Below are positions 2,343 through 33,155 of a stretch of 56,527 nt of DNA, one piece after another (position 1 is the stretch's first letter; each line of letters starts with the position of its first letter). The notes beneath the pieces were generated by a model. It made no database searches and had not been told where the DNA came from. It saw only the letters and a list, made by a program, of their open reading frames with translations. Both the position numbers and the translations under genes were made by a program. The stretch comes from Reclinomonas americana ATCC 50394 (taxonomy: Eukaryota): assembly GCA_048213135.1 (NCBI GenBank), contig AFZH01020179.1, positions 1-56,527 on the forward strand, given 5' to 3'.

Positions 2343-3560
2343 ATGACCTTGGGATTTCGCAGCGAGCGGAACTCGTTTCAGCGCGTGCTGAGGGACCTCG
2401 ATTTCGCACCGCTGGCTCCTGCGAGTGCGGACATCTTTTCGAGGGCTGCGGTGGAGACCTTCGACGGAAAGGACTGGGAGGAGTGGGGTTACGGCTTCAC
2501 TCAGATCTTCGAACCGGGCGTTCTCGTGGAGGTCGCAGTGCTCGAGGGCATGGCGCACGAGGAACTGTGCTCGCTCCGCGCCAGCCCGACCGGGCGCGGC
2601 GCATGGCTTCGTGAGCAATTGGAGATCGTTCCTAGCCTCACTGTGGTGCGTCGTCTGAACCTGGCGGCCGCACTCGTCAGTTTTTCACGGTTCGACCTCG
2701 CCGCAGCCATCCTGACGGACCTCACGACGGAGGCGCTTCAGAACAGAGAGCGGTTCGAACTCGCATGGCTGCAGTTCCTGGTCTCGAACCGCTGCGACGA
2801 CGGCAAGGCCTCGAGTGCGTCCTTCGAAGCGATGGTCGCCGCGATCCGTCACGGTGAGATTCCGACGGGACGTATCCTCGACGTCTGCTCCCAGGGCGTC
2901 GTCTGGTACACGAAGCGACATGAGATCTCGCGAGAGGTCTTCGACTGGTGCGTGGATACCGGCGAACGGCTTGCCGCCGAAAAGACTGGCCTCGACCTGG
3001 GCGCCATTTCCTCATGGTATCGCGGGATCGCCATGGTGCCGGCCGGACATGGGGACGCAGAATCCACCCGACGGTACATGAGGCTGGCCGAGGATGCGGC
3101 GCGAGAGACTTTCGCCGCCCGCCCCACGGCGTTCGAACTCAACACGATCAAGACGTATCATGAATCCACCATCAAGGAGCACATGTACGTCACGGGTGAT
3201 TTCGAGGCTGCGGAGGCCGCGGCGTTGGCGCTCATCGACCTGGACCCCGTCTGGGCCCCCAGCCGTGGCGAGCTCGCCGAAGCCTGCAAGCGGTTCGGAA
3301 AGTTCGAGCGAGCGGCCGGCCTCTACGAAGAGGCTTCGGCGATGGGCCCTCCCTATGTGGGTCACCACCTGTGGCAAGCGGCCAAGTGTCGAGCGCTGCA
3401 CGAGGACCATGACAGAGCCCTGACCCACTACACGACGCTCGTCGAGATCGCCCCGACCGTCGTGGCGTTGCGCACGGAAGGTCTGGCCGTGGCCGAGCGG
3501 GTATCCGGCTCGGCGCGGCGTGACTTCCTGGGCGCGCTCGAACGTGCCGCCGCCGCGTGA
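2343..3560 (+). CDS. Helical-repeat (TPR-like) hypothetical protein, first gene of the cluster
   Basis: ATG 2343 after GGGGAG. C-terminal TPR-like repeats (LIDLDPVWA..LAEA..GKFERAAGLYEEA). Confidence 0.65.
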   Translation: MTLGFRSERNSFQRVLRDLDFAPLAPASADIFSRAAVETFDGKDWEEWGYGFTQIFEPGVLVEVAVLEGMAHEELCSLRASPTGRGAWLREQLEIVPSLTVVRRLNLAAALVSFSRFDLAAAILTDLTTEALQNRERFELAWLQFLVSNRCDDGKASSASFEAMVAAIRHGEIPTGRILDVCSQGVVWYTKRHEISREVFDWCVDTGERLAAEKTGLDLGAISSWYRGIAMVPAGHGDAESTRRYMRLAEDAARETFAARPTAFELNTIKTYHESTIKEHMYVTGDFEAAEAAALALIDLDPVWAPSRGELAEACKRFGKFERAAGLYEEASAMGPPYVGHHLWQAAKCRALHEDHDRALTHYTTLVEIAPTVVALRTEGLAVAERVSGSARRDFLGALERAAAA

Positions 3561-3591
3561 CCGAACCTGATCCGATACCGCCGTCTCAACC

Positions 3592-4872
3592 ATGTCACAA
3601 CACACTGTGGTCTCTCACCAGGGCGAGACTGCCCCCCCGGCGCATCACTCGAAGGAGGAGGTCCGGACGCGATCGGCCTTTCGGCATGATCCCCGCAAGT
3701 TCGTGGATGGAAGAGACTTGGATTCGAGCCTCGAACCCTCTTGGCGGCGCGAGCCGGCGATCTTCGGCTATCGTCGGCTGACGCATCGGGACACGCGTGG
3801 TGAAGACCACCTGGTGCCCATCTGCGCCGCGACCTGCATCGTCCTGGGTCTGGGAGTGGTCGTAGGAAGCTTCGACGGGCGCCTGCGGCTTTTCAGTCGG
3901 GACCTGGGAGAGGTTCTCTGGGAACACCGACTGCCTGGTCCGATCTACGCATCGCCCGTTCTCGACCTGGCGCGCAGAACGGTGGTGGTCGCGACCACCA
4001 ACGGCGTCGTCGAATGCGTGGATCTCGGTGGGCGCCGGCTCTGGTCATCGCGCATCGAGGGGGGCTTCTACGCCACGCCCACCATTTCGCCGACCGAAGG
4101 CCTCGTCGTCTTCGGCGTATTCGGTGGCCAATGCCTCGGCTTCGATCTCGAAACCGGAAGGCAGCGCTTCGCGAAACGCCTTCCGCGCCCATGGTCTGCT
4201 GAGATCGGGGGTTCTGCGGCGCACCGAGACCCCTATGCCAGTCCGATCACAACGATGTCGGAGCAGACGATCTTGTGTTGCTCTCAGCACGCTCTATGTG
4301 TCGACGCTTCGGGCGTGGAGATCTGGCGTCACGACCACGGCGCCGATCTTCGAGCGTCGCCCGTCTACGTCGAGGCTACGAACGAGGTGATCGTCTCAGG
4401 AGTAGATGGTCGCTGTGACTTTCTCGATGCACAGACCGGTGCGTTTCGGGGGTCGATACGGCTCGACGGGAAGATCGTGGCGAGCCCGGCCGTCTCGATG
4501 GGGGTCGCCGTCTTCGGACTGACTGATGACGATGCGGTGGGGGTCGACGTGCGGACTCGCGCTGTTCAGTGGCGGCGCAGGGGCAGTGCTCCGAGAGACC
4601 ACTCCTCCTTCAGCGTAACGCCAGCCGGTGACTTCATCGTGGCCACGTCACGGGGGAATATCGTGTGTCTCACCCCAGGCGACGGTCAGTTCCTATGGGA
4701 AACCAGCCAACTTCTCGGGTTGCCCAACCATGATCCGAAGGTGGACACCACGCCGATCGCCGCAGCAGATGGGAGTCTATACTGCGGCTCCTACTCAGGC
4801 ATGTTGTATCACTTCCGCTTTGCAATGATGGATCTCGGGACGGGGCACGATGGAGAAGCACAGGCAGCCTGA
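3592..4872 (+). CDS. PQQ-binding-like beta-propeller repeat protein
   Basis: Repeated G-x-x-x-W and (S/T)P blade motifs (VVGSFDG, GEVLW, IYASP, GRRLW, YATP, GQFLW). Confidence 0.8.
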   Translation: MSQHTVVSHQGETAPPAHHSKEEVRTRSAFRHDPRKFVDGRDLDSSLEPSWRREPAIFGYRRLTHRDTRGEDHLVPICAATCIVLGLGVVVGSFDGRLRLFSRDLGEVLWEHRLPGPIYASPVLDLARRTVVVATTNGVVECVDLGGRRLWSSRIEGGFYATPTISPTEGLVVFGVFGGQCLGFDLETGRQRFAKRLPRPWSAEIGGSAAHRDPYASPITTMSEQTILCCSQHALCVDASGVEIWRHDHGADLRASPVYVEATNEVIVSGVDGRCDFLDAQTGAFRGSIRLDGKIVASPAVSMGVAVFGLTDDDAVGVDVRTRAVQWRRRGSAPRDHSSFSVTPAGDFIVATSRGNIVCLTPGDGQFLWETSQLLGLPNHDPKVDTTPIAAADGSLYCGSYSGMLYHFRFAMMDLGTGHDGEAQAA

Positions 4873-6601
4873 TCGCGTCGAGCGGGGGTCGTCCATCGTC
4901 GACGACTTGTTGCTTCTATCGGGACGCCTGGAGCAGCTGTTCGCACGTCCGGAACGGGACGAAGAGACATTCGACACTGCGATCGACTTGTTCGCGAGCA
5001 TTGCGCGGTTTCGCGGATACATCGACGGCAACGAGCGGTTTCTCCGGAGTCCCGGCTTGGCGCGCGCCAGAGACTTCCTGCTGGAGACCGACCTTTCGCG
5101 TCGTCTGAGCGAGTTTCTCGACAGGTTCGGAACTCTGCCCGCCGACCGTGAACCGCTTCGCCGCACCTGGAGCACCTGGCTTCGCTCGACGGCATCGGCC
5201 GAAGGAATATTGCGCGAGACGGGTTTGAAGGACGCCGCGGCGAGCGCCCGGGCCACTCTGGAGGAACTCAACCGTTCTCAGAGCGCGCTGTTGGAGAAGC
5301 TCGGCGCGAGGCCGCCGATCGTCTCTCCCGACGCAATGTTCTACTCGGTCCTGAGCCGAACACACGACACCCAACTTCGCAACAAACTCACCACGGCTTG
5401 GCGTCAGCAACGGGAGTCGTTGTTCTCCAAAGGGATCGACAAGTTCGACGACATAGTCCGCCTGCAGCGGCAGAAGGCGATCGCCGAAGGATTTCATACG
5501 CCGTTGCAGAAGACGCTTTCGCGAAGTCCCGTGCCCGAATTGCGGATCACGAAGTTCGTCGAGGCGTACCTCGCGCGTGCACTCGCTGCACACGACGAGC
5601 TGGAAGCAGAAGTCGAGGCCGCAATCGGAGCTGCCGAACGTCCAATCTATCACTTTCCGTATTTCCTCAGGCGCCACTTCGAAGGGATCAAGGTTCCCTT
5701 TTTTCCATTGTGGCCGTGTCTCGACTTCATCCGCACGATCTCTCGCGGGTATTTCGCAGTCGGACTCGATTTGCGAGAAACCCCGAACAGGACGGCGGTC
5801 CGCGCCGTCACGACCTGTGACGGCCGCATGTTGGGTGAGATCACCTTCGATCTGTTCGACGCCACGGGCTCCGAGCGACCGAAGGTAGGACCGAGGGAAC
5901 CCACGGCACACTGCGAGAACGTCCGGCGAGCGCGTGTTCTCTGTCGATACAATGGTCGATCGGACGATGGACCGCTGATCACGTTCGAAAGCCTCCACAG
6001 TATCCTGCACGAGTTCGGGCATGCTCTTCACGTCCTGTTGGCGGCCGAAGCCAGCCCCAGCCTCTCGGGCGTCGACTGTTTCCCAGCGGAGCGCCTGGAA
6101 AACCTGAGTAGCTGGTTCGAAAAGTGGGCGTTTCATCCATCACTCGCAGAACCCCTGGGTCTCGGCGACGCCGACAGTGAAGGCCTTCGCGCTTGTCGGC
6201 TTATCAAAGCTTACGAATTCCGGCGATCACATCTCGATCGCGCGGTCACGGCAGCCCTCGACTTGGAGGTCTATGGTCGAGAGCACGGTGGATTCGAGGA
6301 AGCGTTCCGCACTCTCGACGCAAGAAGCGGCGTATCCCGTCACTACGCACTGGAAGAGGCGCTCCATCACTTTTCGACCCTGAACTTCAACGCCAATTGC
6401 GGCGGCAGCTTCGCCTATCTGTGGGGTGGGGCTCGTGGCGCCCAGACATATCTGGACCTCTCGCCCTCCGGTTGGGCGCTTCCGTCCATCGGACGCAGCG
6501 GTGCAGAAGCCTTGGCTTCGAGTTTCGACGCCAAGTTGGACGAGGAGGCTCCGGACCTCGAGGCCGTGTTCGATTTCTATTCGGGCGTCGGTTGCTCCTG
6601 A
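4850..6601 (+). CDS. Divergent M3-family metallopeptidase (paralog A)
   Basis: HEFGH zinc motif followed by E..S.WFEKW. Overlaps the propeller gene. Confidence 0.75.
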   Translation: MEKHRQPDRVERGSSIVDDLLLLSGRLEQLFARPERDEETFDTAIDLFASIARFRGYIDGNERFLRSPGLARARDFLLETDLSRRLSEFLDRFGTLPADREPLRRTWSTWLRSTASAEGILRETGLKDAAASARATLEELNRSQSALLEKLGARPPIVSPDAMFYSVLSRTHDTQLRNKLTTAWRQQRESLFSKGIDKFDDIVRLQRQKAIAEGFHTPLQKTLSRSPVPELRITKFVEAYLARALAAHDELEAEVEAAIGAAERPIYHFPYFLRRHFEGIKVPFFPLWPCLDFIRTISRGYFAVGLDLRETPNRTAVRAVTTCDGRMLGEITFDLFDATGSERPKVGPREPTAHCENVRRARVLCRYNGRSDDGPLITFESLHSILHEFGHALHVLLAAEASPSLSGVDCFPAERLENLSSWFEKWAFHPSLAEPLGLGDADSEGLRACRLIKAYEFRRSHLDRAVTAALDLEVYGREHGGFEEAFRTLDARSGVSRHYALEEALHHFSTLNFNANCGGSFAYLWGGARGAQTYLDLSPSGWALPSIGRSGAEALASSFDAKLDEEAPDLEAVFDFYSGVGCS

Positions 6602-6652
6602 GGCGGCCAGGACGCCTGATGGCGACGAGTCGGTGCTCAAGCGGAGATCGTC

Positions 6653-7393
6653 GTGGCGCGTGCAGTCGTTCTGGGTGCGAGTTCAGGTCTCGGTCGCAGC
6701 TTGGCGACCCGCCTCGACGAGGACGGATGGGAGGTGCTCGGGATCGGGCGGAGAGACCTGAGCGCAGCACCTCCGAGTTTCGAATACATGCGATGTGATC
6801 TGGGCGACGCCTCAGGCTCGACGGATCTGCGGATCCGATTGGAGCAATCGCCGCCCGAGCTTTTCGTAATGAGCGCGGTGACGTACGAGACACCTGCCCC
6901 TCCGAGGTTGGAAGATCTGGAGCGTATGTTCCGGGTCAACACCCTAGCTCCGTATCTCCTCCTGTCGGAGTATCTCGGCGCTGCGAGCGCCGTAGATCGC
7001 CGCTCTGCGGTCGTCGTCAACTCGGACTCGATCTTTCACGCTAGCCGACAGACCGGGGTCTATGCATCGAGCAAGGCGGCGCTGAGAGTGCTCACCACGG
7101 CGCTCGCACACGACTGCAAAGGCCGAAATGCGAGTGTCGCAAGTCTGCTCCTCGGCCCGATCGCCGATCAGAAGAAGGTCGCCGACCTCGCCACCATCGC
7201 CGCCCGGCGAAGTCTCCCAGAGGCGGAGGTCGTGAGGATCTTCCTGGAGAAGTCGAACCCCTCATTCGTCGTCGATCGCCTGATCGATCTCGACGCATGT
7301 TATCGTAGCCTTCTCTACATCCATGGGCTCGGCCCTATCGCGAACGGCATGATGTGCCGGCTGGACGGCGGGTCCGCAGGATCGCTGGTGTAA
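6653..7393 (+). CDS. Short-chain dehydrogenase/reductase
   Basis: GASSGLG cofactor motif and catalytic YASSK. Confidence 0.85.
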   Translation: MARAVVLGASSGLGRSLATRLDEDGWEVLGIGRRDLSAAPPSFEYMRCDLGDASGSTDLRIRLEQSPPELFVMSAVTYETPAPPRLEDLERMFRVNTLAPYLLLSEYLGAASAVDRRSAVVVNSDSIFHASRQTGVYASSKAALRVLTTALAHDCKGRNASVASLLLGPIADQKKVADLATIAARRSLPEAEVVRIFLEKSNPSFVVDRLIDLDACYRSLLYIHGLGPIANGMMCRLDGGSAGSLV

Positions 7394-7466
7394 CAGCTCC
7401 CTGCGCTATTGCGCCCCTACACTTCGCACTGTGAAATGCGCCGCAATCTAGTGCGAGAGGGAAGTC

Positions 7467-7931
7467 ATGGCGGCCGATCGAAACCTCGAGTCGATGCGAG
7501 AGTATCATGAGCGGTGGAACCGCGGCGACGTCGACGGTGTCTTGGCCATGTTCGCCGTGGACACCAGCAATCACGGCAAGGCAGTGGGGCGCGGCGGGCT
7601 GGAAACTTCGCTCCGAGACATATTCACGATCTTCCCGGACACGCACATCGACGTCCTCGAGATGGTGGCGTCCGACGACAAGGTCGTCGTCCGATGCCGC
7701 TACTCCGGCACGCATCGCGGAATTGGGACCTCCAGCGTCTATGGCGGGTACTTTCGAGATGCTGCGCCGACCCAAAAGGTCTTCGACGTCCAGCACACCC
7801 ACTGGATGACGTTCCGCGACGGATTCATCGTCGAGCACCAGTCCAGCCGAGACGATCTCGGAATGCTCGTCCAGCTGGGCTTGCTCCCGGACGCCGACGC
7901 GTCGCGAGCCTCGGGGAGCACAAGTGCATGA
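7467..7931 (+). CDS. SnoaL-like/ester cyclase (NTF2 fold)
   Basis: WNRGDVD, FPDTHI, DKVVVR..YSGTH.G, DGFIVEH pattern. Confidence 0.85.
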   Translation: MAADRNLESMREYHERWNRGDVDGVLAMFAVDTSNHGKAVGRGGLETSLRDIFTIFPDTHIDVLEMVASDDKVVVRCRYSGTHRGIGTSSVYGGYFRDAAPTQKVFDVQHTHWMTFRDGFIVEHQSSRDDLGMLVQLGLLPDADASRASGSTSA

Positions 7932-8953
7932 CTTGGTCCTGGCGAGCCGAAGATCTGGAACGCTCTCAGGACCATGTGGTCAAGCTGACCGGGACGACGG
8001 TCGGGGTGCTGAAGTCGCTTCTTCCGAACGATGAGAGCGACCCGACGCTCGCCCGTCATCGTGAGGCCGAAGGTCTGTCCGTCCAGCTGGCGGGCATCGC
8101 CTCGCACGTTCTGCGCAAGGTCAGGACCGGTCCTGGAATCATGGTCTTGAGCGGCGAGGGCCTCGATGAACTCTCCGACGGTCAACTGCGCGCGCTCACC
8201 ATTGGAATTGCACGGCGCATCGGTCGGCTCGTGGCGCAAAACGCTTCGGGTGAACGCATAGTGCTGGTCGCCGATCAGAGGCCCTCGGACCTCAAGAGTG
8301 CGCGTGGCTATCTGACGAACGAGAACATGCTGTTGCACACCGACGCCTCGGACGTGGCGGCGCTCCTGTGTCTGGCTCCGTCCGCGCGGGGAGGCGGAAG
8401 TCTCCTGGCGAGTTCGGCCGCCGTCCACGATGTGCTCTGCGACGAGGCTCCCGACGAGCTGCACGCCTTCTATCGAACTTGGCGATGGAACGTCGGCAGC
8501 ATGCGCGTCGCCGACATCGACGGAACGCTGTCCTCGCCGATCTTCAGTGTGCGAGACGGCCGACTGAGTTGTCGGTACGGCTCCTATATGCTCCGCGAAG
8601 CGCGGGCCGGGGGCAGGCCGCTCACAGAGGATGCGCTGAGAGCCCTCGACCGTTTCGAGGACGTCGCCAGGCGCCCTGAGCTTCTCTTGCGTCATCGGCT
8701 GCAGCGCGGCGAAATCCTCTGGATGGACAACTACAGAGTTCTCCACGGGAGGGAGGCCTTCGTCGACGAAGCGTCGGAAGAACATGCACGCCGATTTCTT
8801 CGTTTCTGGATCAGGCTGCACGACCGACCGGCGCTCGCCGAGACATTCTCTCGGTTCGACGACGTCTTGCTCGACCATTTCGAAGCGGCTGCCGCCGCGC
8901 AACTGAACTCCCCCGACGACCTGCCAGGCCGGCCGAACCACCGGTCTCTATAA
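7928..8953 (+). CDS. TauD/TfdA-family Fe(II)/2-oxoglutarate dioxygenase
   Basis: LHTD (HxD) and DNYRVLHGR motifs. ATG 7928 overlaps the upstream stop (ATGA). Confidence 0.85.
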   Translation: MTWSWRAEDLERSQDHVVKLTGTTVGVLKSLLPNDESDPTLARHREAEGLSVQLAGIASHVLRKVRTGPGIMVLSGEGLDELSDGQLRALTIGIARRIGRLVAQNASGERIVLVADQRPSDLKSARGYLTNENMLLHTDASDVAALLCLAPSARGGGSLLASSAAVHDVLCDEAPDELHAFYRTWRWNVGSMRVADIDGTLSSPIFSVRDGRLSCRYGSYMLREARAGGRPLTEDALRALDRFEDVARRPELLLRHRLQRGEILWMDNYRVLHGREAFVDEASEEHARRFLRFWIRLHDRPALAETFSRFDDVLLDHFEAAAAAQLNSPDDLPGRPNHRSL

Positions 8954-9069
8954 TGCAGTCGCCCCTTCTTCACTTTTTACACGGACTCCCACTGTCGCTA
9001 CATTATCTACATTGCTAGGGTCGCATTGCTTCAACCACGAAGCGAACGACAACCAAATGGGAGTCTGAA

Positions 9070-9225
9070 ATGCAAACCTACAGCCTGGAAAAGAAGCCCG
9101 CCTTCTTCCCCTTCGTGTCCGCCGAGATCTTCTTCGAGGCCGACGCGCAAGAAGGCGGCCTGAAGATCGAGACCGCTGGTCTGGATCTGGACGTTGAACT
9201 CGACGAGCTCCTGAGCGTCGACTGA
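9070..9225 (+). CDS. 51-aa candidate RiPP precursor/scaffold peptide MQTYSLEKKPAFFPFVSAEIFFEADAQEGGLKIETAGLDLDVELDELLSVD
   Basis: Translated by hand because it is below the ORF-track cut-off. GGGAG RBS upstream, GC-ending codons, own intergenic leader, hairpin immediately downstream. Confidence 0.75.
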   Translation: MQTYSLEKKPAFFPFVSAEIFFEADAQEGGLKIETAGLDLDVELDELLSVD

Positions 9226-9234
9226 TCGTCCAAA

Positions 9235-9269
9235 GTCTTGGGCGCGCCCTCGGGGGGCGCGCCCAAGAC
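9235..9269 (+). terminator. Perfect 15-bp stem-loop after the peptide gene (mRNA stabiliser or partial terminator)
   Basis: GTCTTGGGCGCGCCC-TCGGG-GGGCGCGCCCAAGAC, with no U-tract. Confidence 0.75.
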
Positions 9270-9310
9270 CCCGAGCCGCAACACGTCGCCGATTCCCACC
9301 GAGAACCGTC

Positions 9311-11101: not shown

Positions 11102-11739
11102 CTTCCAACGCTGCCTATGTCCGCACGATGCTCGGAACGCGCGAGACGGTTCTCGACGAAGTTCTTCGAGACGCCCTGCTGGGCCGAGGCCTTCGTCCCA
11201 TGCAGATCGACGACAACGCCGGACGGGTCCTGCAGCTGCTCACGCGATTGCGTGCGCCGCGCCTGGCGCTGGAGGTGGGGACCTACTTCGGGTTCTCCGC
11301 GATCCACATCGCAAGAGGTCTGCCCGACGGGGGACGCCTGATCAGTCTCGAAATCGACGAGGAGGTCGCGGCGGTCGCACGCCGCAACCTGATCGCGGCA
11401 GGCGTCGCCGACCGTGTCGAAGTGATCGTGACGGATGCGTTCGAATATCTGGCTGAAGTGACACCGGCCAGCATCGGCCTCGTGTTCATAGATGCGGACA
11501 AGAAGCGTTACCCGCAATACCTCAAAGCCTGCTTCCCGTTGCTCGAGAGCGGAGCGCTGCTCATCGCCGACGACGCGTTCGCGCACGGCGACTTTGCGCC
11601 CGAGGCGGTCGACACGGAAGAGGGGCAGACCGAAGTCCGCGCCATCAACACGTACAACCGAGCAATCTTGCGCAGCGATGCATTGATGTCGGCGTTCGTC
11701 GGGACGAACAATGGAATGTTGGTAAGCGTGCGCAAATGA
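11098..11739 (+). CDS. O-methyltransferase (caffeoyl-CoA OMT/Methyltransf_3 type)
   Basis: LEVGTYFGFS and VFIDADK..Y motifs. Confidence 0.9.
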   Translation: MTSNAAYVRTMLGTRETVLDEVLRDALLGRGLRPMQIDDNAGRVLQLLTRLRAPRLALEVGTYFGFSAIHIARGLPDGGRLISLEIDEEVAAVARRNLIAAGVADRVEVIVTDAFEYLAEVTPASIGLVFIDADKKRYPQYLKACFPLLESGALLIADDAFAHGDFAPEAVDTEEGQTEVRAINTYNRAILRSDALMSAFVGTNNGMLVSVRK

Positions 11740-11767
11740 AACATGCGCTTTGCATTGAGTCGGTCAA

Positions 11768-12253: not shown

Positions 12254-12263
12254 AGGGTCCCAG

Positions 12264-22030: not shown

Positions 22031-22035
22031 GGGAG

Positions 22036-23790: not shown

Positions 23791-26700
23791 ACTGGAAGAA
23801 TGGCTGGTCGCCAGGCTCGCCACCAAGACTGGGCTCACGCCTGCTTCGATCGCATTGGACGAGCCGCTCAGCTCGTTCGGTCTGGACTCCGAAGCCATCC
23901 TGGCGATGACGGGCGAGATCTCGGAGAGGCTAGAACGAGACGTCGATCCCACGATCTTCTTCAGCTACCCGACGGTCTCCTCGGTGAGCGCCTACCTCTG
24001 CTCGAGCCTGATCGGGTCGCACCGACGAACTTCGGAGCGTCGCACCGATCAGGTCGGAGACCCTGTCGCCATCGTGGGACTTGCCTGCCGATTTCCGGGC
24101 GCGCCGGACAAGACTGCGTTTTGGGATCTGCTGAACGAAGGTCGTTCGGCGATCGAAGATCGTGGTGCAGACCGCTGGGCCTCGTCGGGCGCCTCCAGCG
24201 AGGAGCTCCGCAAGATCGCCCGGGCCGGCTTCTTGGATGGTGTGGATCTCTTCGCCGCCGAATTCTTCGGAATTCGTTCCGAAGAGGCCCGTCGCATGGA
24301 CCCGCAACAGCGGCTTCTCCTCGAAGTCGCCTGGGAGGCGCTGCAAGACGCCGGGATTCCGACGACACGCATCAAGGGTTCGTCCTGTGGAGTCTATGTC
24401 GGCATCTCCACCAATGAATACGGGAAGCGGCAGACTGAAGGTCTCGACGCGGTGGGCGCGATGACGGGGACCGGCGCGGCGCTTTCGATCGCCGCCAATC
24501 GGCTTTCCTACATGTTCGATCTGCGGGGAGAGAGCGTCGCCGTGGACACGGCGTGTTCCTCGTCCTTGGTGGCGCTCGGAATGGCGGTGCGCGCGCTTCG
24601 CCGAGGAGACTCGGAAACGGCTCTCGTCGGCGGCGTGAACCTTCTCATCGACCCGGAAATCAGCTGGGGCATGGCCCAGGCGGGCATGCTCTCGCCGAAC
24701 GCGCGATGCAGGACCTTCGACGAGCAGGCGGACGGGTACGTTCGCGGCGAGGGGTGCGGCGTGGTGGTGCTCAAGTCGCTCGCAGCGGCGCTTCGGGACG
24801 GAAACCAGATCTATGCCCTCGTGAGAGGCGTCGCCGTCAACCAGGACGGCCGTTCCAACGGGCTCACGGCGCCGAACGCCCTCGCCCAACAAGACGTCGT
24901 CCGGAAGGCTCTGGAAGACGCGGGTGTAGCGGCGGCCGACGTGGCCTACGTCGAAGCGCATGGCACCGGAACCCCGCTCGGCGATCCCATCGAAGCCAAT
25001 GCGCTCGGCGTCGTTCTGGCCGATGCCGCTGCGCCGGTCGGTGTGGGCTCGGTGAAGACGAACATCGGCCATTTGGAAGCTGCCGCCGGCATTGCGAGCG
25101 TCATAAAGACAGCCCTGTCGATCCGACATGGTTCGGTGCCTCCCACTCTCAACGTCGAGACCCTGAACCCCAAGATCACGGCCCCGAACCTGCGTGTCGC
25201 CACTCAGGGATGGCGGTTGCCCGCGACGGGAGAGGCGAGGATATGCGGCGTGAGCAGCTTCGGCTTCGGCGGCACCAACGCGCACGCGGTGCTCAGCGGC
25301 GCACCTTCGCTGGGCGCGAGGACGGGTGCGCCGGCGCTCGAGGGCTCGGTTCTGGTACCTTTGTCGGCTGGGAGTGAAGCTGAGCTCCGAGCCTTCGCCC
25401 AGCATCTCGCGACGGTCGTGGAAACGACGGGCGCACCTCCGTCCGCCGTAGCTCAGATCCTAGGAAACAAGCGCGACCTGCTCTCGGCGAGAACGGGCAT
25501 CGTGGCATCTGACGGCGCCGATCTCGCCCGCCAGCTTCGCTCCACTTCAGCGCGCGCAGTGATAGCCAAGTCCGCCCGTGCTCCGCGTATCGCGTTCGTC
25601 TTCGCCGGCCAGGGTAGTCAGACGCCGCAGATGGCCCGCGAGCTGTGGCGCGCAGAGCCCCTTGCAGCCTCGATCATGCGCCGGTGCGACGAGGTCGTGC
25701 GCGACGTGGCCGGTTGGTCGCTGCGAGACGCCTTGATGGGAGAACCCGATCGGTTCGCCGACACCGCCGTCCTCCAGCCTTGCCTGGTGGCTTACGGTAT
25801 CGCGCTCTTCGAACTCTATCGCAGCCGCGGACTCGAACCGACCCGGGTGCTCGGTCACAGCGTCGGCGAAATCACGGCGGCATACGCCGCTGGCGCGATT
25901 ACTCTCGAGGACGCGATGCTCATCGCCTGTCGTCGCGGCTCCGCGATGGCGAGCACTGCCGGGCAAGGCGCGATGCTGGCGGTCCAAGCGACGGCGGAGG
26001 AAGCCGCGCGGTTCGTCGAAGAGGGCGTGATCGGCTTGGCTGCAACGAATGCACCGACCGAAATCGTCCTGAGCGGCGCCCGGGGGCCCCTTGAACGCGT
26101 GCAGGCGGCCTCGAGAGCCGAAGGGCGTCACGTCGCCTGGGTGAACGAGACCTACGCGTTTCACAGTCACCAGATGTCGGACGCGGCGCTCGCGGTGGAA
26201 GCGGCCCTCGCGGGTTTGGATCCGCTGGACGGAAGCGTCGGCTTCATCTCGAGCGTCGTGGGCGACCTTCTTCCCGGCTCCGCTCTCACGCCGCAGTACT
26301 GGCGTCGCAACGTAGTCGAGACCGTGCGTTTCGCCGAAGCCGTCGACAAGCTCTCCGCGGTCGACCTGGTGATCGAGATCGGGGCTCGCCCGGTGTTGCA
26401 GCGTTCCATGCGTGACGTGCTGCCGGGCGAAGTCTCGGTGATCTCGAGCAGTCGGCCTGGCTCGAACGAGCATCGGGCATGGCTCTCGAGCCTCGCGGAG
26501 GCCTTCGAACGCGGCTGCGCTTTGAAATACGGCACAGGCGAACCGCGCCTCGATCCGGGTGAGATGCCTGTTCCGCGGCTGCCTCAGGAACGCTATTGGC
26601 TCGAACGGAGAACCGCGAGCCAGGGAGCGGGTCGAGGCCTCCTCGGCCGCCGTCTCCGGCTCGCACCCGTGGCAGGCGTCCACGTGTGGGAGGCGGAGCT

Positions 26701-29245
26701 CGGCCTGGACACCCATCCGTTTCTCGCAGGCCACGTCGTGGATGGCGCAATTGTGCTCCCGGCGGCCGCGCAAGTCGCCATGCTCGCGCGAGCTGCTAGC
26801 GAGATCGGTCTGGGAGAGCGAGTCGATCTCAAAGACGTCGTCTTTCGCCGACCCATCGTCCTGAGCGAGCGCGCGTCGACACTGCAGGTGGTGGCAAGTG
26901 TTCAAGCGCGCGCCGTTTCGCTCGAGATCGCCGCTTTCGACGCCGCCTCGGGCGACTTCGTGACTTGCTGCACATGCGAGGCCGCGACGGCTGACGAGAC
27001 CGCCCTCTTCGAAGGCGCGCCACCCAAGGATCTCGTCCGAACGGAGCCCGTAGTCGCGCTCTACGACGAGCTTGAACGGCGAGGTCTCGAATATGGTCCT
27101 TCGTTCCAGACCGTGACCGACCTGCGCGAAAGTGGTGCGACCACCTACGGAGCCTTACGCGCTGCGGCCGCGACCCCGACCGATGACGAGAGCAGGTTGA
27201 CGGTCATGCTCGACGGCGCCTTCCACCTGCTCGGCGCTGCGGATGGCGCCGACCGGGAGACCGGACTGCTGATCCCCGCTGCGATCAGGCGCCTGCGGAT
27301 CCACTCCGCCTGTCCGACGCAGGGTTGCAGCTGGGCTCGGCTCCGTGATCGAGCCGCTCGCCTGAGAAAGGCCGACGTGGTCCTGCATGGCGATCGAGGC
27401 CCGGTGATCGAACTGGAAGGGCTTGCTCTCGCAGTGTCCAAGGTCGGACCTCGGCGAGCGCAGCCTCTGGATCTCAAGGCCTATGAATCCGTCTGGCGTG
27501 CCGCTCCCCTCGACCACCTGATCGAATCCGGCGATCTGGTGCTCGTCGGCTCATCGGCCTTCGCAACGGAACTGGCGGCAGCGGCGCGCGCCTCGGGCGT
27601 CGAGGTCGCCTCGATAGCGCTTCGCACGGAAGCCGGCGACGGGCTCGATCCGGCCTGCCCGATCGATTGGAGAGGCCATCTCAGACGCGCGGCGTCAGTG
27701 ACGCCCGATGCCCGCGCGCTCGTCGTACTTCTCGACGATCTGTACGACGAGCTGACGACGCGGTGGGCGCAGTCCGCGCGGATCGCCGACGTCGTGCGCG
27801 CGGCGCTCCAAGCCGCGCCCTACGCTCCGTTCCAGTCGACACCGCGCCTCTGTTTCGTCAGCCGAGGTGCGGTCCGCGCCCTGCCTGACGACCTGGTGAC
27901 GAGCCCTATCGCAGCGATAGCGCATGGGCTTGCGCGCACGGCCCATTTCGAAGCGCCGAGCCTGAACTGCCTATGCGTGGATCTCGACGCCTTCGCGACT
28001 TCGGAGCGACAAGTCTCTCAACTACTGGCGGAGCTCGCCGGCGGTTCGACCGAGAGCGAAGTGGCGCACCGAGGCAGCGCCCGCATGGTCCGGCGCGTCC
28101 ATCCTCTCGACCTGCGCTCAGCCGATGTGACTGCCGCTTCGGTAACCGGTGAAGGGGCATACCTCGTCACCGGCGGCGCGGGCGCTCTAGGAGCTCTCGC
28201 CATCTCTTGGCTCTGCGAACAAGGCGCGGGGCGCGTGATTTCAGTCGGCCGCTCCGAGCCGTCGGAAGCCTGGAAAGCGATGCTCGAACCCCACCAGGCG
28301 AAGATCACTCACCTCTGCGCGGACATCGGCGACCGCGAGGCGCTACGCTGCATCGTCGGCGACTTGCCCGACGGCATGGCGCTCAAGGGCATAGTACATG
28401 CTGCAGGTGTGATCGAAGACGGTCCACTGATGTCGCTCTCGTCGGAGAGTCTGCAGCGAGTGCTTCGGCCGAAGGTGGATGGTGTCGAGGCGTTGTGGGA
28501 GACCCTTGCAGACGGAGATCTCGACTGGATCGTCCTCTATTCGAGTGCAGCATCGGTGCTGGGTTCGCCGGGACAAGCAAACTATGTGGCCGCCAACGCC
28601 TATCTGGATGCCTTCGTCGACTTCGCGCATGGCTCGAAGACCCGCGTGATCGGTTGCAACTGGGGGCCTTGGGCGGATCTCGGAATGGCGCAGGCCATCG
28701 ACGGCTCGAGCGCCCTCTCGGGAATCTCTCTGATTCCGCCTGAGCACGGGATGCATGCGCTATCTCGGATGCTGGAATCGACCGCGGACCATGCGATCCT
28801 TCTCCCGTTCGACTTGGAGAGCCTGGTCCAATACTACCCCGAAGGTCCCGGATTTGCGCTGTTCGAGGATCTTCTCGCGGGTCCGGGGCTGAACCTCCGG
28901 AGTGCGGGAGATCGTCTGACAGTGTCTCGGCGGCCGGATCTCGACACGCAGTTCGTCGAGCCTTCGACGCCGGTGGAACGCCTCATTGCGGGGATGTGGA
29001 GCCGCGCGCTCGGGATCGACCGGATCGGTCTGCACGACAACTTCTTCGCGCTCGGCGGGGACTCGGTCTTGGGGAATCAGATCTTCATCGAGATCAGCAC
29101 CGCGCTGGGCGTCACCATCTCGCCGGAAGAAGCCTTCGAGAACCTCACGGTCCATGAACTGGTGTCGCTTGCCGAGCGTCGCGCCGCGGAAATGCTCGAC
29201 GAAATGGACGATGAGACCCTTCGTGAACTCGCCGGGGCACAGTGA
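23777..29245 (+). CDS. Single-module type I PKS: ACP-KS-AT-DH-KR-ACP, no TE
   Basis: GLDS (ACP); DTACSSS/HGTGT/NIGHLE (KS); GHSVG/YAFHS (AT); HPFLAGHVVDG..VLP (DH); TGGAGALG/HAAGVIED/YVAAN (KR); FFALGGDS (ACP). Confidence 0.93.
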   Translation: MQRGELEEWLVARLATKTGLTPASIALDEPLSSFGLDSEAILAMTGEISERLERDVDPTIFFSYPTVSSVSAYLCSSLIGSHRRTSERRTDQVGDPVAIVGLACRFPGAPDKTAFWDLLNEGRSAIEDRGADRWASSGASSEELRKIARAGFLDGVDLFAAEFFGIRSEEARRMDPQQRLLLEVAWEALQDAGIPTTRIKGSSCGVYVGISTNEYGKRQTEGLDAVGAMTGTGAALSIAANRLSYMFDLRGESVAVDTACSSSLVALGMAVRALRRGDSETALVGGVNLLIDPEISWGMAQAGMLSPNARCRTFDEQADGYVRGEGCGVVVLKSLAAALRDGNQIYALVRGVAVNQDGRSNGLTAPNALAQQDVVRKALEDAGVAAADVAYVEAHGTGTPLGDPIEANALGVVLADAAAPVGVGSVKTNIGHLEAAAGIASVIKTALSIRHGSVPPTLNVETLNPKITAPNLRVATQGWRLPATGEARICGVSSFGFGGTNAHAVLSGAPSLGARTGAPALEGSVLVPLSAGSEAELRAFAQHLATVVETTGAPPSAVAQILGNKRDLLSARTGIVASDGADLARQLRSTSARAVIAKSARAPRIAFVFAGQGSQTPQMARELWRAEPLAASIMRRCDEVVRDVAGWSLRDALMGEPDRFADTAVLQPCLVAYGIALFELYRSRGLEPTRVLGHSVGEITAAYAAGAITLEDAMLIACRRGSAMASTAGQGAMLAVQATAEEAARFVEEGVIGLAATNAPTEIVLSGARGPLERVQAASRAEGRHVAWVNETYAFHSHQMSDAALAVEAALAGLDPLDGSVGFISSVVGDLLPGSALTPQYWRRNVVETVRFAEAVDKLSAVDLVIEIGARPVLQRSMRDVLPGEVSVISSSRPGSNEHRAWLSSLAEAFERGCALKYGTGEPRLDPGEMPVPRLPQERYWLERRTASQGAGRGLLGRRLRLAPVAGVHVWEAELGLDTHPFLAGHVVDGAIVLPAAAQVAMLARAASEIGLGERVDLKDVVFRRPIVLSERASTLQVVASVQARAVSLEIAAFDAASGDFVTCCTCEAATADETALFEGAPPKDLVRTEPVVALYDELERRGLEYGPSFQTVTDLRESGATTYGALRAAAATPTDDESRLTVMLDGAFHLLGAADGADRETGLLIPAAIRRLRIHSACPTQGCSWARLRDRAARLRKADVVLHGDRGPVIELEGLALAVSKVGPRRAQPLDLKAYESVWRAAPLDHLIESGDLVLVGSSAFATELAAAARASGVEVASIALRTEAGDGLDPACPIDWRGHLRRAASVTPDARALVVLLDDLYDELTTRWAQSARIADVVRAALQAAPYAPFQSTPRLCFVSRGAVRALPDDLVTSPIAAIAHGLARTAHFEAPSLNCLCVDLDAFATSERQVSQLLAELAGGSTESEVAHRGSARMVRRVHPLDLRSADVTAASVTGEGAYLVTGGAGALGALAISWLCEQGAGRVISVGRSEPSEAWKAMLEPHQAKITHLCADIGDREALRCIVGDLPDGMALKGIVHAAGVIEDGPLMSLSSESLQRVLRPKVDGVEALWETLADGDLDWIVLYSSAASVLGSPGQANYVAANAYLDAFVDFAHGSKTRVIGCNWGPWADLGMAQAIDGSSALSGISLIPPEHGMHALSRMLESTADHAILLPFDLESLVQYYPEGPGFALFEDLLAGPGLNLRSAGDRLTVSRRPDLDTQFVEPSTPVERLIAGMWSRALGIDRIGLHDNFFALGGDSVLGNQIFIEISTALGVTISPEEAFENLTVHELVSLAERRAAEMLDEMDDETLRELAGAQ

Positions 29246-29928
29246 CGGGGGACCGCGGCGGCGCAGCTGAAACGCTCCACGACCTCCATCGACTCGTGGC
29301 CTCGCTGCCGTCCGGCGTCTCGGCTGCCGCCTGCGAGATTTCGGAGACGGTAGAGCAGTACGACTGGTACCCGGAGGCGGCTGAAATGCAGAGCGTCGCC
29401 ATTCGCCGGCGACGCGAGTTTCTGGCCGGTCGAAGGTGCGCGCGACAAGCCCTGGCGCGCCTGGGCCATCCAGGCGCTCATGTACCGATCGGGACGGACC
29501 GCGCCCCTGTCTGGCCATCGGGGTTCGTGGGCAGCATCTCCCACAGCTCGACGCGGGCGCTCGCAGTCGTCGCGTCCTCAGGCGTGGTCACGGCGCTGGG
29601 CGTCGACTGCGAGACACGGGGCAGGGTGACACCCGGCCTTGCCTCGAAACTGCTGCGCGACGACGAGCGTCGGAACGGCGGCTTGATAGTCTACGACTGG
29701 CCGACACTGGTGTTCAGCGCGAAGGAGGCATGCTTCAAGGCTTGGTATCCCAGCCATGGGCAGATGCTCGACTTTCACGACGTCCGGCTACATTTTTCCT
29801 CGGACTTGAACTCTTTTCAGGCTGAAATCGTGCTCGACGGGCGAGTGAAGATGCACTTGCGTGGAGGGGCCGTTCATTTGGGCGTCGACCACGTCTACAC
29901 AGCCGCCTGGCAAGACACTCAAATATGA
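29242..29928 (+). CDS. 4'-phosphopantetheinyl transferase (EntD-like)
   Basis: RRREFLAGR, P.WP.G.VGSISHS, LGVDCE, FSAKEA.FKA motifs. Confidence 0.92.
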   Translation: MTGDRGGAAETLHDLHRLVASLPSGVSAAACEISETVEQYDWYPEAAEMQSVAIRRRREFLAGRRCARQALARLGHPGAHVPIGTDRAPVWPSGFVGSISHSSTRALAVVASSGVVTALGVDCETRGRVTPGLASKLLRDDERRNGGLIVYDWPTLVFSAKEACFKAWYPSHGQMLDFHDVRLHFSSDLNSFQAEIVLDGRVKMHLRGGAVHLGVDHVYTAAWQDTQI

Positions 29929-29953
29929 CCGGCGACGCCGGCGGGAGGAATCG

Positions 29954-31156
29954 ATGAGCAGTGGCGCTACGGGGCGTCTGACGTTGCCCCTATACCTCGT
30001 CATATTCTTGGACTCGATCGGCTACGCGCTGATCATGCCCTACCTTCCCTTCATTCTCATGGACCAGGGCGCGGATGCGCGGCTTGGCGGCTTCGTCGTC
30101 GCCGTTCACGCGGTCGCCGCGATCGGTGCTGCGCCGATCTTGGGGCGGCTTTCCGACAAATGGGGCCGAAAGCCGATCCTGTTGGCGACCATTCTGGGCA
30201 CGGCGGTCGCTTATCTCGCCTTCGCGCTCGCGCCCAACATCTGGATCCTGCTGCTGTCGCGTGCGATCGCCGGGGTCATGGCCGGCAACGCCGGCGTTGT
30301 CCAGGCAGCGCTCACTGACGCCACCTCCGACGAGGAACGCGGCAAAGCCATGGCCTTTTCCAACGCCGCATGGGGTATGGGCTATCTGGTAGGGCCCGCG
30401 GCAGGCGCCGGCTTGACGATGCTCACACCGCAGGCTTCGGGCCTTTACGTCGGTCTCCTCGCCGTGGTGGCGTCCATCGTCTCTGCAGTGGTGGTCTGGA
30501 CGCGGTACCACGACGTGTCGGTCGACAACGCTGCGGGCTCTTCTGCCGCATCGGGGAAATTGCCCGGGTCGGCGATGATCGTTCAGATGCTTCTGCTCTA
30601 CGGCTTGTTGTCCGTGGCGCAGAACGGCTTGGCTTCGATGACGGGCTTCTGGGCGAATGCGTCGTTCGGGTGGACCCAACGTGGCGTGAGCCTGCTCATG
30701 TTCGGGGTCGCCGCCAGCATCATCGTGATGCAGTTGCTGGTCATGCCCATCCTCTTCCGCAAGCTGAAGACCAACCATCTCCTCTTCTTCACCATCGGGG
30801 TGATGGTGATCGGATGCTCTGCGATCTGGTTGGCGAAGACGAACGTACCTCTGATGGGCGTGAGTGCGGCGCTCTTGTTCTGCGGCATCACGGCATCGCA
30901 AGCCGTCGCGAGTACAATTCTCTCCAAGGCCGCGACGCCTGAGACGCGAGGACGCGTCATGGGAGCCTCTGTGAGCTCCGGGGCCGTCGGACGCGTCATC
31001 GGTCCGCCTGCCTTCGGATATCTCTTCGTCACCGCAGGCCCCCAATCGCCGTTCGTGGCCGTACTGGCGATGATGTTGGCGTTTCTCGTCTGGCGGGGTC
31101 TGGAGGCTTCGACCCAACGCACGGTCGGTCGCACCGCCGAGCACGTTCCTGACTGA
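29954..31156 (+). CDS. MFS drug/H+ antiporter (TetA/DHA1-like)
   Basis: FLDSIG..LIMP.LP, GRLSDKWGRKP motif A, multiple hydrophobic helices. Confidence 0.88.
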   Translation: MSSGATGRLTLPLYLVIFLDSIGYALIMPYLPFILMDQGADARLGGFVVAVHAVAAIGAAPILGRLSDKWGRKPILLATILGTAVAYLAFALAPNIWILLLSRAIAGVMAGNAGVVQAALTDATSDEERGKAMAFSNAAWGMGYLVGPAAGAGLTMLTPQASGLYVGLLAVVASIVSAVVVWTRYHDVSVDNAAGSSAASGKLPGSAMIVQMLLLYGLLSVAQNGLASMTGFWANASFGWTQRGVSLLMFGVAASIIVMQLLVMPILFRKLKTNHLLFFTIGVMVIGCSAIWLAKTNVPLMGVSAALLFCGITASQAVASTILSKAATPETRGRVMGASVSSGAVGRVIGPPAFGYLFVTAGPQSPFVAVLAMMLAFLVWRGLEASTQRTVGRTAEHVPD

Positions 31157-31214
31157 AGCGGAGCGGATCACCCGAGAGCGTGGTAGGACACCTCGCTCTC
31201 GGTGGCCGCGAGGA

Positions 31215-33155
31215 TCAGACCCGCGACGACATGCGGAGCAGATATTCGCCTCGATTGAAGGGGTTCTGATCCTGTCGCGGCCGGTCGGGAACCGGCCCGC
31301 GGACTTGCTCGTAGTGGTCGAATGCGGACTCGAGGATGCCCTCGCCGTGGGTCAGACCGGGCAACTGCCGCTGAAGATCGTGAACCCGTGCGGCAGGGAT
31401 GTCGCCTTCCATGACGAAACGCGATCCCTCGATCTCCGGAGGATATGGCACCGCATGCAACGCCCCCAACGCCGGAAGAACTAGGCTCAAGGTGTCGGCC
31501 GGAGCGTCCAGCTGGAAGCGGTGAACGGGCTCGAACACTCTTGTGCCTGCGCGGCGAAGTGCGTCTGCGACCACCAACGGCGTGAGATTCCGGTGATCGG
31601 CCGCCGTGCTGGTCGCCCACTTCCGATAGCGGATCGCCTGAGTCATCGTGACGACGACATCGGTGACCTCCCACCCGTGTAGGCCCTGGCGGAGGGTGTC
31701 GCGAACGGCGTCCTCCACAGCCTTGAGAAAGGCATGAGGAACCGAGCCGACATCCACTTCGAGGCGGAACTCGACGCCGCTGCCGACCTGGCCGGGCTCG
31801 ACTCTCAGACCTACGGTCGCGATGAAGGGGTAGGGAGCCTCATCGATGGCTTCACCGACGCCGATGGGTCGTTCGACGCAGATCGTCGTCGTCTCCCGAA
31901 ATTCGACCTCGACACCGAAGTCCTTCGAGAGCGTTTCTTGAATGACTTCCTTCTGCACTTCGCCATAGAGCGAGAGAGACATCTCCTGACGTTCATCGTT
32001 CTGCCGAAGGTTGATGAGAGGGTCTTGCTCGGCGAGCCGCGTCAAAGCTGCATGCAAGCGCCCACGCTCCGAAGGATGTCGCGGGACGATGACCGTCTCC
32101 AAAGTCGGCGGTGAGAAGCGGTGCAGAGCTCGCGCCGGTCCTGAAATCCCGAGGGTGTCGCCGATACGGACGTCGGTCAGTCCCCAGATCATGCCGATCC
32201 GACCTGCGGGAAGTCGGTCGCTGGGACAAGCTTCCCCACGATGGAAGATACTCAGCGCCGTGATTTTCTGCTCTCGCCCTCGCACCGCCACGCGTTGACG
32301 TGCTTTGATCTCGCCGGCGAACATCCGTGCATAGGCGATCCGCTCTCCGTTCGGGCCTCTGTCGACTTTGAAGACCGTTCCAGTGGGAGGTTCGTCGACA
32401 TCGCCTTCGCGCGCCGGCAAGAGCTCCGCGAGCCCGTCCACGAGTTGCTCGATACCTGCTCCGGTGATCGCCGAACCGAAGTATACCGGCTGAAGCTTCA
32501 GACTTCGTGTCTGAGACCTGAGCACCCTTCGCAGCTTTGCGGCCGAGGTGGTGCGCCCAGCCACGTAGTCGGACAGGATCCGGTCGTCCTGCTCGGCGAG
32601 AAGCTCCATCAACTCCGTCGCCGCGAGCGGATCGTCGAAGTCGCGTGTTTCGACATACGCGCTCGCTCCACCGAGGTCTCGAGGGATGCTCATCGCGACG
32701 AGAGACGGCGATAGACGTTCGCGCATCGAAGACAGCAGACTCTCGAATCTCGCACCCCGCCTGTCGATCTTGTTGACGAAGATGAGCGTGGGGATCTGCA
32801 GCCGCTTCAGGGCTCGCATCAGGACACGCGTCTGCGCCTGGACGCCCTCGACCGCAGAAATGACGAGCACTGCGCCGTCCAGGACGCTTAACGATCGTTC
32901 GACCTCGGCGATGAAGTCTGGGTGGCCGGGCGTGTCGATGAGGTTGACGACGATGTCTTTCATCTCGAACGAGGCGACGGCCGCCTTGATCGTGATGCCT
33001 CTCTCTCGTTCTTGCTCGAGGGAGTCTGTCTGCGTATTGCCGCCGTCGACGCTACCGACTTGGTCTATGACGCCGCCTACGTAGAGGAGGCGCTCGGTGA
33101 GACTGGTCTTACCGGCGTCGACGTGCGCCAGAATGCCCAGGTTTAACACACGCAT
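31215..33155 (-). CDS. TetM/OtrA-family ribosomal protection-type translational GTPase
   Basis: LNLGILAHVDAGKTSLTE, TQTDSLEQERERGITI, DTPGHPDF, NKID, ST.AD.R.L.P motifs. Confidence 0.9.
   Translation of the reverse strand: MRVLNLGILAHVDAGKTSLTERLLYVGGVIDQVGSVDGGNTQTDSLEQERERGITIKAAVASFEMKDIVVNLIDTPGHPDFIAEVERSLSVLDGAVLVISAVEGVQAQTRVLMRALKRLQIPTLIFVNKIDRRGARFESLLSSMRERLSPSLVAMSIPRDLGGASAYVETRDFDDPLAATELMELLAEQDDRILSDYVAGRTTSAAKLRRVLRSQTRSLKLQPVYFGSAITGAGIEQLVDGLAELLPAREGDVDEPPTGTVFKVDRGPNGERIAYARMFAGEIKARQRVAVRGREQKITALSIFHRGEACPSDRLPAGRIGMIWGLTDVRIGDTLGISGPARALHRFSPPTLETVIVPRHPSERGRLHAALTRLAEQDPLINLRQNDERQEMSLSLYGEVQKEVIQETLSKDFGVEVEFRETTTICVERPIGVGEAIDEAPYPFIATVGLRVEPGQVGSGVEFRLEVDVGSVPHAFLKAVEDAVRDTLRQGLHGWEVTDVVVTMTQAIRYRKWATSTAADHRNLTPLVVADALRRAGTRVFEPVHRFQLDAPADTLSLVLPALGALHAVPYPPEIEGSRFVMEGDIPAARVHDLQRQLPGLTHGEGILESAFDHYEQVRGPVPDRPRQDQNPFNRGEYLLRMSSRV

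Follow-up and report, generated by a model that had tools for sequence, protein, structure and literature searches.

We have identified what is very probably an undescribed family of peptides made on the ribosome and modified after translation (RiPPs), encoded by the left block (2343-18975) of a gene cluster spanning positions 2343-33155 of Reclinomonas americana ATCC 50394 contig AFZH01020179.1; the window is the whole 56,527-nucleotide stretch analysed. The block combines a 51-amino-acid precursor peptide with modifying enzymes and peptidases and is followed by a lipid cassette made up of a free-standing condensation (C) domain, a luciferase-like flavin monooxygenase (LLM), a fatty acyl-AMP ligase (FAAL), a single polyketide synthase (PKS) module, a phosphopantetheinyl transferase (PPTase) and a major facilitator superfamily (MFS) exporter. 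A first-pass annotation had read the two as a candidate hybrid cluster. Pfam and NCBIfam scans of the window's open reading frames (ORFs) confirmed all of its genes in their order and place, and its view of the peptide block as RiPP-like is upheld by a conserved precursor and co-varying enzymes at 13 other loci. Lipidation of the peptide by the C domain in this genome is a serious possibility that falls just short of an even chance.

The precursor is conserved well beyond the window. Eleven homologues were found in the protein collection, and 25 aligned copies from that collection, genomes and metagenomes share 12 invariant positions, among them A11, F12, F13, A18, E19, F21, F22, A24, L44, D45 and L48. 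Family peptides are 46-56 amino acids long and follow the pattern AFF-X1X2X3X4-AE-x-FF, with an acidic tail thereafter. The tetrad between FF and AE is variable and reads PFVS, PSVA, PAVT, PSVS, RVMS, RVAN or RIVS; both peptide ends vary too, and the C-termini differ in length and residue. A long hairpin lies right after the peptide stop codon at 10/10 loci folded (the window and nine relatives; z -1.3 to -5.6). Given the homologues, the invariant positions and the hairpin, we regard the peptide as a real gene. The accession numbers of the peptide and of M3b, the divergent zinc peptidase that is the hallmark of the family, are consecutive in Bradyrhizobium sp. vgs-9.

Within this conserved frame, enzyme content follows the precursor sequence, with one clade per swap. 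The comparison was made on 13 relatives with usable context (counts of 14 include the window). Short loci (L001, L042, L043 and L045-L047; 1.4-4.5 kb) were excluded from this table, and G191 and G205, which have DUF6445 and pentapeptide-repeat proteins but another peptide and no M3b, were excluded from the family counts. Arginase, encoded directly after the peptide gene, occurs in 3/3 loci with Arg at X1 and in 0/11 with Pro, and a pair of DUF6445 proteins with a pentapeptide-repeat protein occurs in 11/11 Pro-type and 0/3 Arg-type loci. The gain of an arginase together with Arg, and the loss of a proline-linked oxygenase in that one step, would be difficult to account for were the tetrad not the substrate. 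Six of the eight PFVS loci, window included, carry a P450 of the window type (at least 40% identity), compared with 0/6 others, and the two that lack it have an FAD oxidase instead; TauD is likewise found in 6/8 PFVS loci (window included) and 0/6 others. An aminotransferase is present at nine loci and an aldo-keto reductase (AKR) at four, never together. Neither was found in G075, whose contig ends inside the cluster and in which the propeller was also not found, so this locus is uninformative on the aminotransferase. All six aminotransferases tested (the window's and those of 5/5 relatives) pass the daptide cut-off of NF041821, the window copy with 558 bits against 450, in keeping with this enzyme being able to supply an amine. 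The conserved peptide, the tetrad-following enzymes and the mutual exclusion of aminotransferase and AKR point to a RiPP family in which a carbonyl is formed along the way.

Some observations temper this reading. On a quickly made M3b tree, the Arg loci fall into a single clade (support 95) and the AKR loci into another (support 99), so each swap amounts to one event instead of three or four. The residue at X4 is Ser or Thr in 9/9 aminotransferase loci, a weak pattern since Ser is the majority residue at that position (22/25). In addition, G1460 has Asn at X4 yet keeps the SDR and the AKR.

The family has a stable core. The TPR, M3b and O-methyltransferase (OMT) genes are present in 13/13 relatives, the TPR protein at 43-56% and the OMT at 54-65% identity, and the propeller and SDR genes in 12/13, the exception being G075. 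The end of the SDR, DGGSxG(S/T)L, is conserved in 13 aligned copies, and M3b retains the HEFGH motif, the Glu ligand and a YSYLW-type motif when aligned with oligopeptidase A. The modelled TPR fold best matches TPR domains such as that of LGN (Z 20.2, root-mean-square deviation 5.4, 298 aligned), and the protein is a candidate peptide-binding scaffold; a predicted TPR-peptide complex, run without alignments, scored 0.01 and counts neither way. The family is widespread among bacteria and present in well-sampled actinomycete genera, and 151 M3b homologues were retrieved at E<=1e-20, with no strong M3b match on plasmids. P0012/P0001, encoded on a contig of 6,228 bases, is a sister M3b (support 99). 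A peptide-based genome scan recovered five loci, including those of Nocardia amamiensis, Amycolatopsis sp. cmx-4-68, Streptomyces scopuliridis and Streptomyces sp. NPDC005811, and a metagenome scan recovered seven, two of them long. Genome samples carried loci at 5/401 (two belonging to a different family), 5/401, 3/391, 1/401 and 1/386; in the class of G001 (1/401) and the order of G002 (1/386), the sole match was the centre genome itself.

The cluster is laid out in three transcription units. Unit 1, tightly packed on the plus strand, begins with the TPR gene (2343) and finishes with that of a weak methyltransferase (18975); unit 2 is a divergent pair, the C-domain gene (19019-20464, minus) and the LLM-FAAL-PKS-PPTase-MFS operon (20753-31156, plus); and unit 3 is an Otr(A)-like gene standing alone (31215-33155, minus). 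Unit 1 contains the following features:

2343-3560, plus: TPR-superhelix protein, all-helical (model predicted local distance difference test score, pLDDT, 92.6); family core gene
3592-4872, plus: PQQ/BamB-type beta-propeller (PF13360, PF13570); family core gene
4850-6601, plus: M3a, paralogue of divergent M3 zinc peptidase type (PF01432), retaining HEFGH and the downstream Glu
6653-7393, plus: short-chain dehydrogenase/reductase (SDR; PF00106), YxxxK retained; family core gene
7467-7931, plus: SnoaL-like protein (PF07366); window only, 0/13 relatives
7928-8953, plus: TauD-type 2-oxoglutarate (2OG)-Fe(II) oxygenase (PF02668)
8976-9004, plus: sigma-70-like site 5' of the peptide gene, a consensus match only (one found, 2.5 expected by chance) and not evidence alone
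9070-9225, plus: ORF of the 51-amino-acid precursor peptide, KPAFF-PFVS-AEIFFEA with acidic LDxELDxLL tail
9109-9120, plus: variable tetrad of the precursor, residues 14-17, from the alignment
9235-9269, plus: perfect 16-bp hairpin 3' of the peptide stop (z -2.65), conserved in position and not in sequence
9311-11101, plus: M3b, divergent M3A zinc peptidase, aligning to oligopeptidase A; family hallmark
11098-11739, plus: OMT of catechol/caffeoyl-CoA type (PF01596; relatives in PDB); family core gene
11768-12253, plus: 161-amino-acid ORF, degenerate DUF6445 paralogue (profile match, E 1.4e-12)
12264-12914, plus: DUF6445 2OG-Fe(II)-type oxygenase (PF20043), HAD..H..R motif
12911-13648, plus: pentapeptide-repeat protein (PF00805) with unique N-terminal domain
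13645-14931, plus: daptide-type class III aminotransferase (NF041821)
14936-16165, plus: cytochrome P450 (PF00067), linked to Phe at X2
16159-18201, plus: Dcp-like M3 peptidase (PF01432, E 3.6e-109), also in L041 (46%) and G720 (36%)
18205-18975, plus: weak class I methyltransferase (PF13489, E 2.9e-6), which may be degenerate; window only, 0/13 relatives

Catalytic motifs are intact in the three M3 peptidases, TauD, DUF6445, P450, SDR and aminotransferase, as they are in the KS, AT, DH, KR and both ACP domains of the PKS. The profile for the 161-amino-acid ORF was built from eight positional equivalents with the window rows left out; this paralogue lacks the HxD..H iron triad and is a probable partner subunit. 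DUF6445 has no sequence match in PDB. Promoter and terminator scans gave results at or under chance level, and no Rfam match was found in window positions 1-36000.

Signs of decay were seen in cluster copies: the second M3 gene of G001 (L012:3100-4800) contains an in-frame stop, and one M3b is frameshifted (L044:7274-8900). The richest member is G720 (L035:16084 to L036:15786), where arginase, an Asp/Arg hydroxylase, a JmjC protein, an ATP-grasp ligase, an adenylation-thiolation (A-T) didomain, a P450 and a 692-amino-acid protein without assigned function lie beside the peptide block. The DUF6445 and pentapeptide-repeat proteins are shared with a second peptide cluster type in G191 (L024:4800-12000) and G205 (L027:2000-12000), which has a 47-amino-acid peptide with a NNMMRFTDFSPL motif, a class I/II aminotransferase, a flavin reductase, a 570-amino-acid unknown protein and an MFS protein, with additional heme-oxygenase-like and TauD enzymes in G191 and an amidohydrolase and a nitroreductase in G205. 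This looks like another uncharacterised RiPP family.

A partial parallel to the peptide block was found in the daptides, in which oxidation and decarboxylation act on a C-terminal Thr and the ketone receives its amine from DapD, according to the accessible parts of the reports (10.1101/2023.03.08.531785; 10.1101/2025.07.11.664356). The two systems share the NF041821 aminotransferase subfamily and the logic of a carbonyl followed by an amine on a ribosomal peptide, and an SDR is among the common daptide cluster hits given there. However, the invariant C-terminal Thr and the ELExMEAP leader motif described in those parts are absent from the 25 peptides here, and in place of an Fe-dependent alcohol dehydrogenase (ADH) and a site-2 protease there are M3 peptidases, a TPR protein and a propeller. 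This family also has one precursor with an internal variable tetrad, and in one clade an AKR replaces the aminotransferase. PF00465 and PF02163 were not found in 42 window ORFs and no other daptide model matched in 24 cluster proteins, a divergent RiPP recognition element (RRE) not having been searched for; the only candidate for a daptide-style N-methyltransferase is the weak class I methyltransferase, which is absent from the relatives. Membership in the daptides was therefore rejected: the aminotransferase agrees, and the C-terminal Thr, the leader, and the DUF-RRE, ADH and protease do not.

Other known classes fit no better. Pearlins are made with a PEARL (LanB-like) aminoacyl-tRNA ligase and lasso peptides with an asparagine-synthetase-like cyclase and an RRE/protease; both were rejected, as the Pfam and NCBIfam scans gave no lantibiotic dehydratase hit and no cyclase or RRE/protease hit, despite a lasso-like spacing from A11 to E19. 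Avionin/AviCys members would be expected to carry a lanthipeptide-type dehydratase or cyclase, for which the same scans gave no hit, and the peptide has no Cys. The either-or of this family is known from linear gramicidin (LgrE) and myxochelin (MxcL), where a peptide aldehyde has two alternative fates, an AKR reducing it or a class III aminotransferase aminating it, although those are nonribosomal peptide synthetase (NRPS) products released by a reductase domain, and here there is no NRPS or thioester-bound peptide.

The cassette and the gene beyond it comprise the following features:

19019-20464, minus: free-standing C domain (PF00668), motif DHIIFDG, LCL-like by best PDB matches
20753-22030, plus: LLM (PF00296)
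22036-23790, plus: FAAL (best NCBIfam matches are FAALs, below their cut-offs)
23774-29245, plus: single PKS module ACP-KS-AT-DH-KR-ACP, no thioesterase (domain and motif scans)
29242-29928, plus: PPTase (PF17837, PF01648)
29954-31156, plus: MFS exporter, TetA-like (Pfam/NCBIfam; far below the Tet cut-offs)
31215-33155, minus: Otr(A)-like ribosomal protection GTPase (NF000120, 738 against 900; NF012153, 717 against 775; both below cut-off)

The FAAL is the sole AMP-binding protein among the 42 window ORFs scanned, so no NRPS adenylation (A) domain lies within the window, as the first-pass annotation had stated; it was also right that the acceptor for a free C domain unaccompanied by an A domain has to come from elsewhere. 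To judge from their motifs, the KR and DH probably give a 2-enoyl product and the AT probably uses malonyl-CoA. A relative of the LLM, at 47% identity, sits between type I PKS genes. A single-sequence fold of the C domain reached a pLDDT of 35.9 and was not used.

In the zeamine pathway, the proposed role of Zmn19, a free C domain with a PHxxxDG motif, is to couple an acyl chain held on the PKS with an amine, according to the available portion of the report (PMC3547906). The arrangement here is of the type of Zmn19 and the vibriobactin enzyme VibH, a free-standing C domain with an xHxxxDG motif beside an assembly line that lacks a thioesterase (the PKS ends in an ACP), with release onto a free amine proposed for Zmn19 (PMC3547906). 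In the C motif the first His is replaced, by Asp here (DHxxxDG) and by Pro in the published Zmn19 motif; as far as that portion of the report goes, the acceptors there are polyamines and not ribosomal peptides, and the donor here is one FAAL-primed PKS module. In the accessible text of two reports, goadvionins, lipolanthines, lipoavitides and selidamides are all acylated by a GNAT; the first-pass annotation had named GNAT or FabH-like enzymes as attaching the acyl chains of described hybrids such as goadvionin and lipoavitides, but in lipoavitides a GNAT attaches the acyl group and FabH builds it (PMC13647313; 10.1101/2023.10.25.564083). Those clusters likewise place RiPP genes beside fatty-acid or PKS genes, and goadvionin uses a PKS and an ACP-bound acyl donor; the likeness to goadvionin and the lipoavitides is one of gene neighbourhood only, with FabH present in two relatives here. 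The candidate coupling enzyme in the window differs, being the C domain, and Pfam and NCBIfam scans of the window gave no GNAT family hit.

Several observations favour a local hybrid. The two blocks abut, with a gap of 43 bases, and are alike in codon usage (permutation p 0.31), jointly differing from nine flanking genes (0/1000 permutations). The cassette lies between the peptide operon and the Otr-like gene, the family's usual neighbour, and other clades carry add-ons of their own: FabH and MATE in G075 and G750 (65% identical), A-T didomains in G720 and G750, and glycosyltransferases in G003 and G637. A local hybrid is plausible on account of the shared codon usage, the lack of an A domain in the window, the Zmn19-like free C domain and the clade-specific add-ons elsewhere. 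Three public freshwater metagenome runs carry short pieces of both blocks at a depth of 2-3.4, 17/24 pieces listed showing zero differences from the window, and the junction between methyltransferase and C-domain genes is spanned by one error-free contig of 170 bases from a public run; these runs may stem from the window's own campaign, so their support for the junction is not independent.

Weighing against the hybrid, and in favour of an independent cassette, is its distribution. The C domain, PKS, LLM, PPTase, MFS exporter and a true FAAL were found in 0/13 relatives, at distances of up to 25 kb from the peptide or as far as the stretch examined reached. The gene order of the window is almost fully kept in L041 and L044, which end after the Dcp-like peptidase or the P450 and show no cassette in a 13.5-kb downstream view. 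The hybrid is thus not typical of the family, whose RiPP block works where the cassette is absent; the cassette forms a self-contained unit, divergently transcribed and equipped with a PPTase and an exporter of its own. Likeness in codon usage can also arise from residence on one shared island, and the window's Otr protein is nearer to non-cluster Otr proteins (61% and 60%) than to cluster ones (45-54%), so nesting of the cassette in the RiPP cluster is not proven. It may be, then, that the cassette is an unrelated neighbour on a mobile island, its C domain acylating a small host amine or alcohol and the two blocks making two products. The flanks look mobile, with a MucR gene on the left and a truncated RND gene, a broken C39-ABC gene, transposases and an integrase on the right. 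Against this reading stand the abutting blocks with their common codon usage and the absence of any free-standing copy from our searches. A single close homologue of the C domain was found (P0132, 53%, encoded on a 10,190-base contig); there was no match in viral or metagenome contigs and about 32% at best on plasmids, and the best C-domain match in five genomes searched whole was also 32%. In a C-domain profile search of 1.84 billion representatives, the best 150 matches were mostly multi-module NRPS proteins, and moderately close free C domains may rank lower. Neither the lipid cassette on its own nor a second instance of both blocks together was found. The earlier proposal of a single hybrid cluster is partly supported. 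Of the two independent occurrences that it named as refuting it, one is seen, the peptide block standing without the cassette in 13/13 relatives; the other, the cassette alone, was not. Two separate products seem to us on balance doubtful, though far from remote; if the RiPP family is granted, whether lipid and peptide are coupled is evenly poised.

Readings that affect the RiPP assignment itself are much less probable. The TPR protein might read the peptide as a signal or a scaffold, with the enzymes acting on small metabolites; the TPR fold does resemble Rap/NprR/PlcR peptide receptors among many TPRs, and the universal OMT and SDR are typical of small-molecule chemistry. We consider this quite unlikely, as an arginase directly follows the peptide exactly where X1 is Arg, the aminotransferase subfamily is known to act on peptides, and Pfam detects no DNA-binding domain in the TPR protein. 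It is similarly improbable that the family makes a compound already described whose genes have so far gone unmatched. Its presence in well-sampled actinomycete genera would allow this, and the daptide studies, in their accessible parts, BLASTed aminotransferases widely and could list these proteins in their datasets; however, no model of NCBIfam (June 2026) passes its cut-off with the TPR protein, propeller, M3b, OMT, SDR, DUF6445 or peptide, a literature search for DUF6445 yielded no paper, and combined-term searches returned nothing relevant. The literature search, with MIBiG, subscription journals and supplements outside its scope, turned up neither a description of this family nor a case of RiPP acylation by a C domain.

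We propose the following pathway for an undescribed RiPP family carrying a lineage-specific lipidation cassette, a proposal as a whole not quite as probable as its opposite. The precursor would be held through its acidic tail, a probable recognition follower. The tetrad would be oxidised, by the DUF6445 pair on Pro and by P450 and TauD on or near Phe; the OMT would O-methylate the peptide, and the M3 peptidases would excise a short core of FF-PFVS type. The SDR may then generate a carbonyl that the daptide-type aminotransferase converts to a primary amine, or that is reduced in the AKR clade. The simplest route to the carbonyl would be a cut before A18-E19 followed by daptide-like oxidation and decarboxylation of the exposed C-terminal Ser17, a route suggested by analogy that we hold at less than even confidence. 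The FAAL would load a fatty acid, the PKS module would add two carbons to give a 2-enoyl-ACP, and the LLM may oxidise it. The free C domain could offload the acyl chain onto the peptide amine, and the resulting small lipopeptide would be exported by the MFS protein.

A hint of the target comes from the Otr-like genes, which adjoin 7/13 relatives. Such genes are otherwise scarce, the five genomes searched holding 0, 0, 0, 0 and 2 Otr-like copies genome-wide, and four cluster genomes have no Otr match. On a tree with six non-cluster Otr proteins, the cluster genes come out as polyphyletic, and the window copy is not shown to be orthologous to the other cluster Otr genes; it does not reach the tetracycline ribosomal protection cut-offs and is called Otr-like only. 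This recurring recruitment suggests that the product acts on the ribosome or an elongation factor, and hence on translation. Taken jointly, and only tentatively, the cluster may define a new RiPP class (TPR, beta-propeller and M3, with no known class-defining enzyme in the core) that makes short ribosome-targeting peptides ending in an amine or alcohol with clade-specific decoration, to which an NRPS-type C domain here joins a PKS-extended acyl chain.

Beyond the cluster, positions 397-2091 encode a MucR/Ros regulator and a protein that is ParB-like by eye with no Pfam hit, which suggests an alphaproteobacterial host and the edge of a mobile element. The right flank (33320-37500) is decayed, with only the C-terminal half of an AcrB-type gene, a C39-peptidase ABC transporter fragment ending beside a transposase, and a broken transposase. 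Positions 38361-47250 hold an FAD-dependent oxidoreductase and three large proteins without Pfam match (272, 849 and 1196 amino acids), possibly a defence or conflict module, and positions 51286-56446 (minus) encode a metallo-beta-lactamase-fold protein, a subtilase, a trypsin-like peptidase and a protein without assigned function whose start resembles that of a lipoprotein.

The larger result is the RiPP family itself, which we consider more interesting than the hybrid. Its natural variants tie single enzymes to single residues (Arg with arginase, Pro with DUF6445, Phe with P450) and set aminotransferase against AKR, and the family would give DUF6445 its first substrate. The repeated, polyphyletic recruitment of Otr-like genes is a self-resistance signal of the type used to find translation inhibitors. 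If the C domain does acylate the peptide, it would represent a route of lipidation beyond the GNATs listed in the accessible text of an October 2026 paper (PMC13647313), and would provide a tool for making lipopeptides from gene-encoded peptides.

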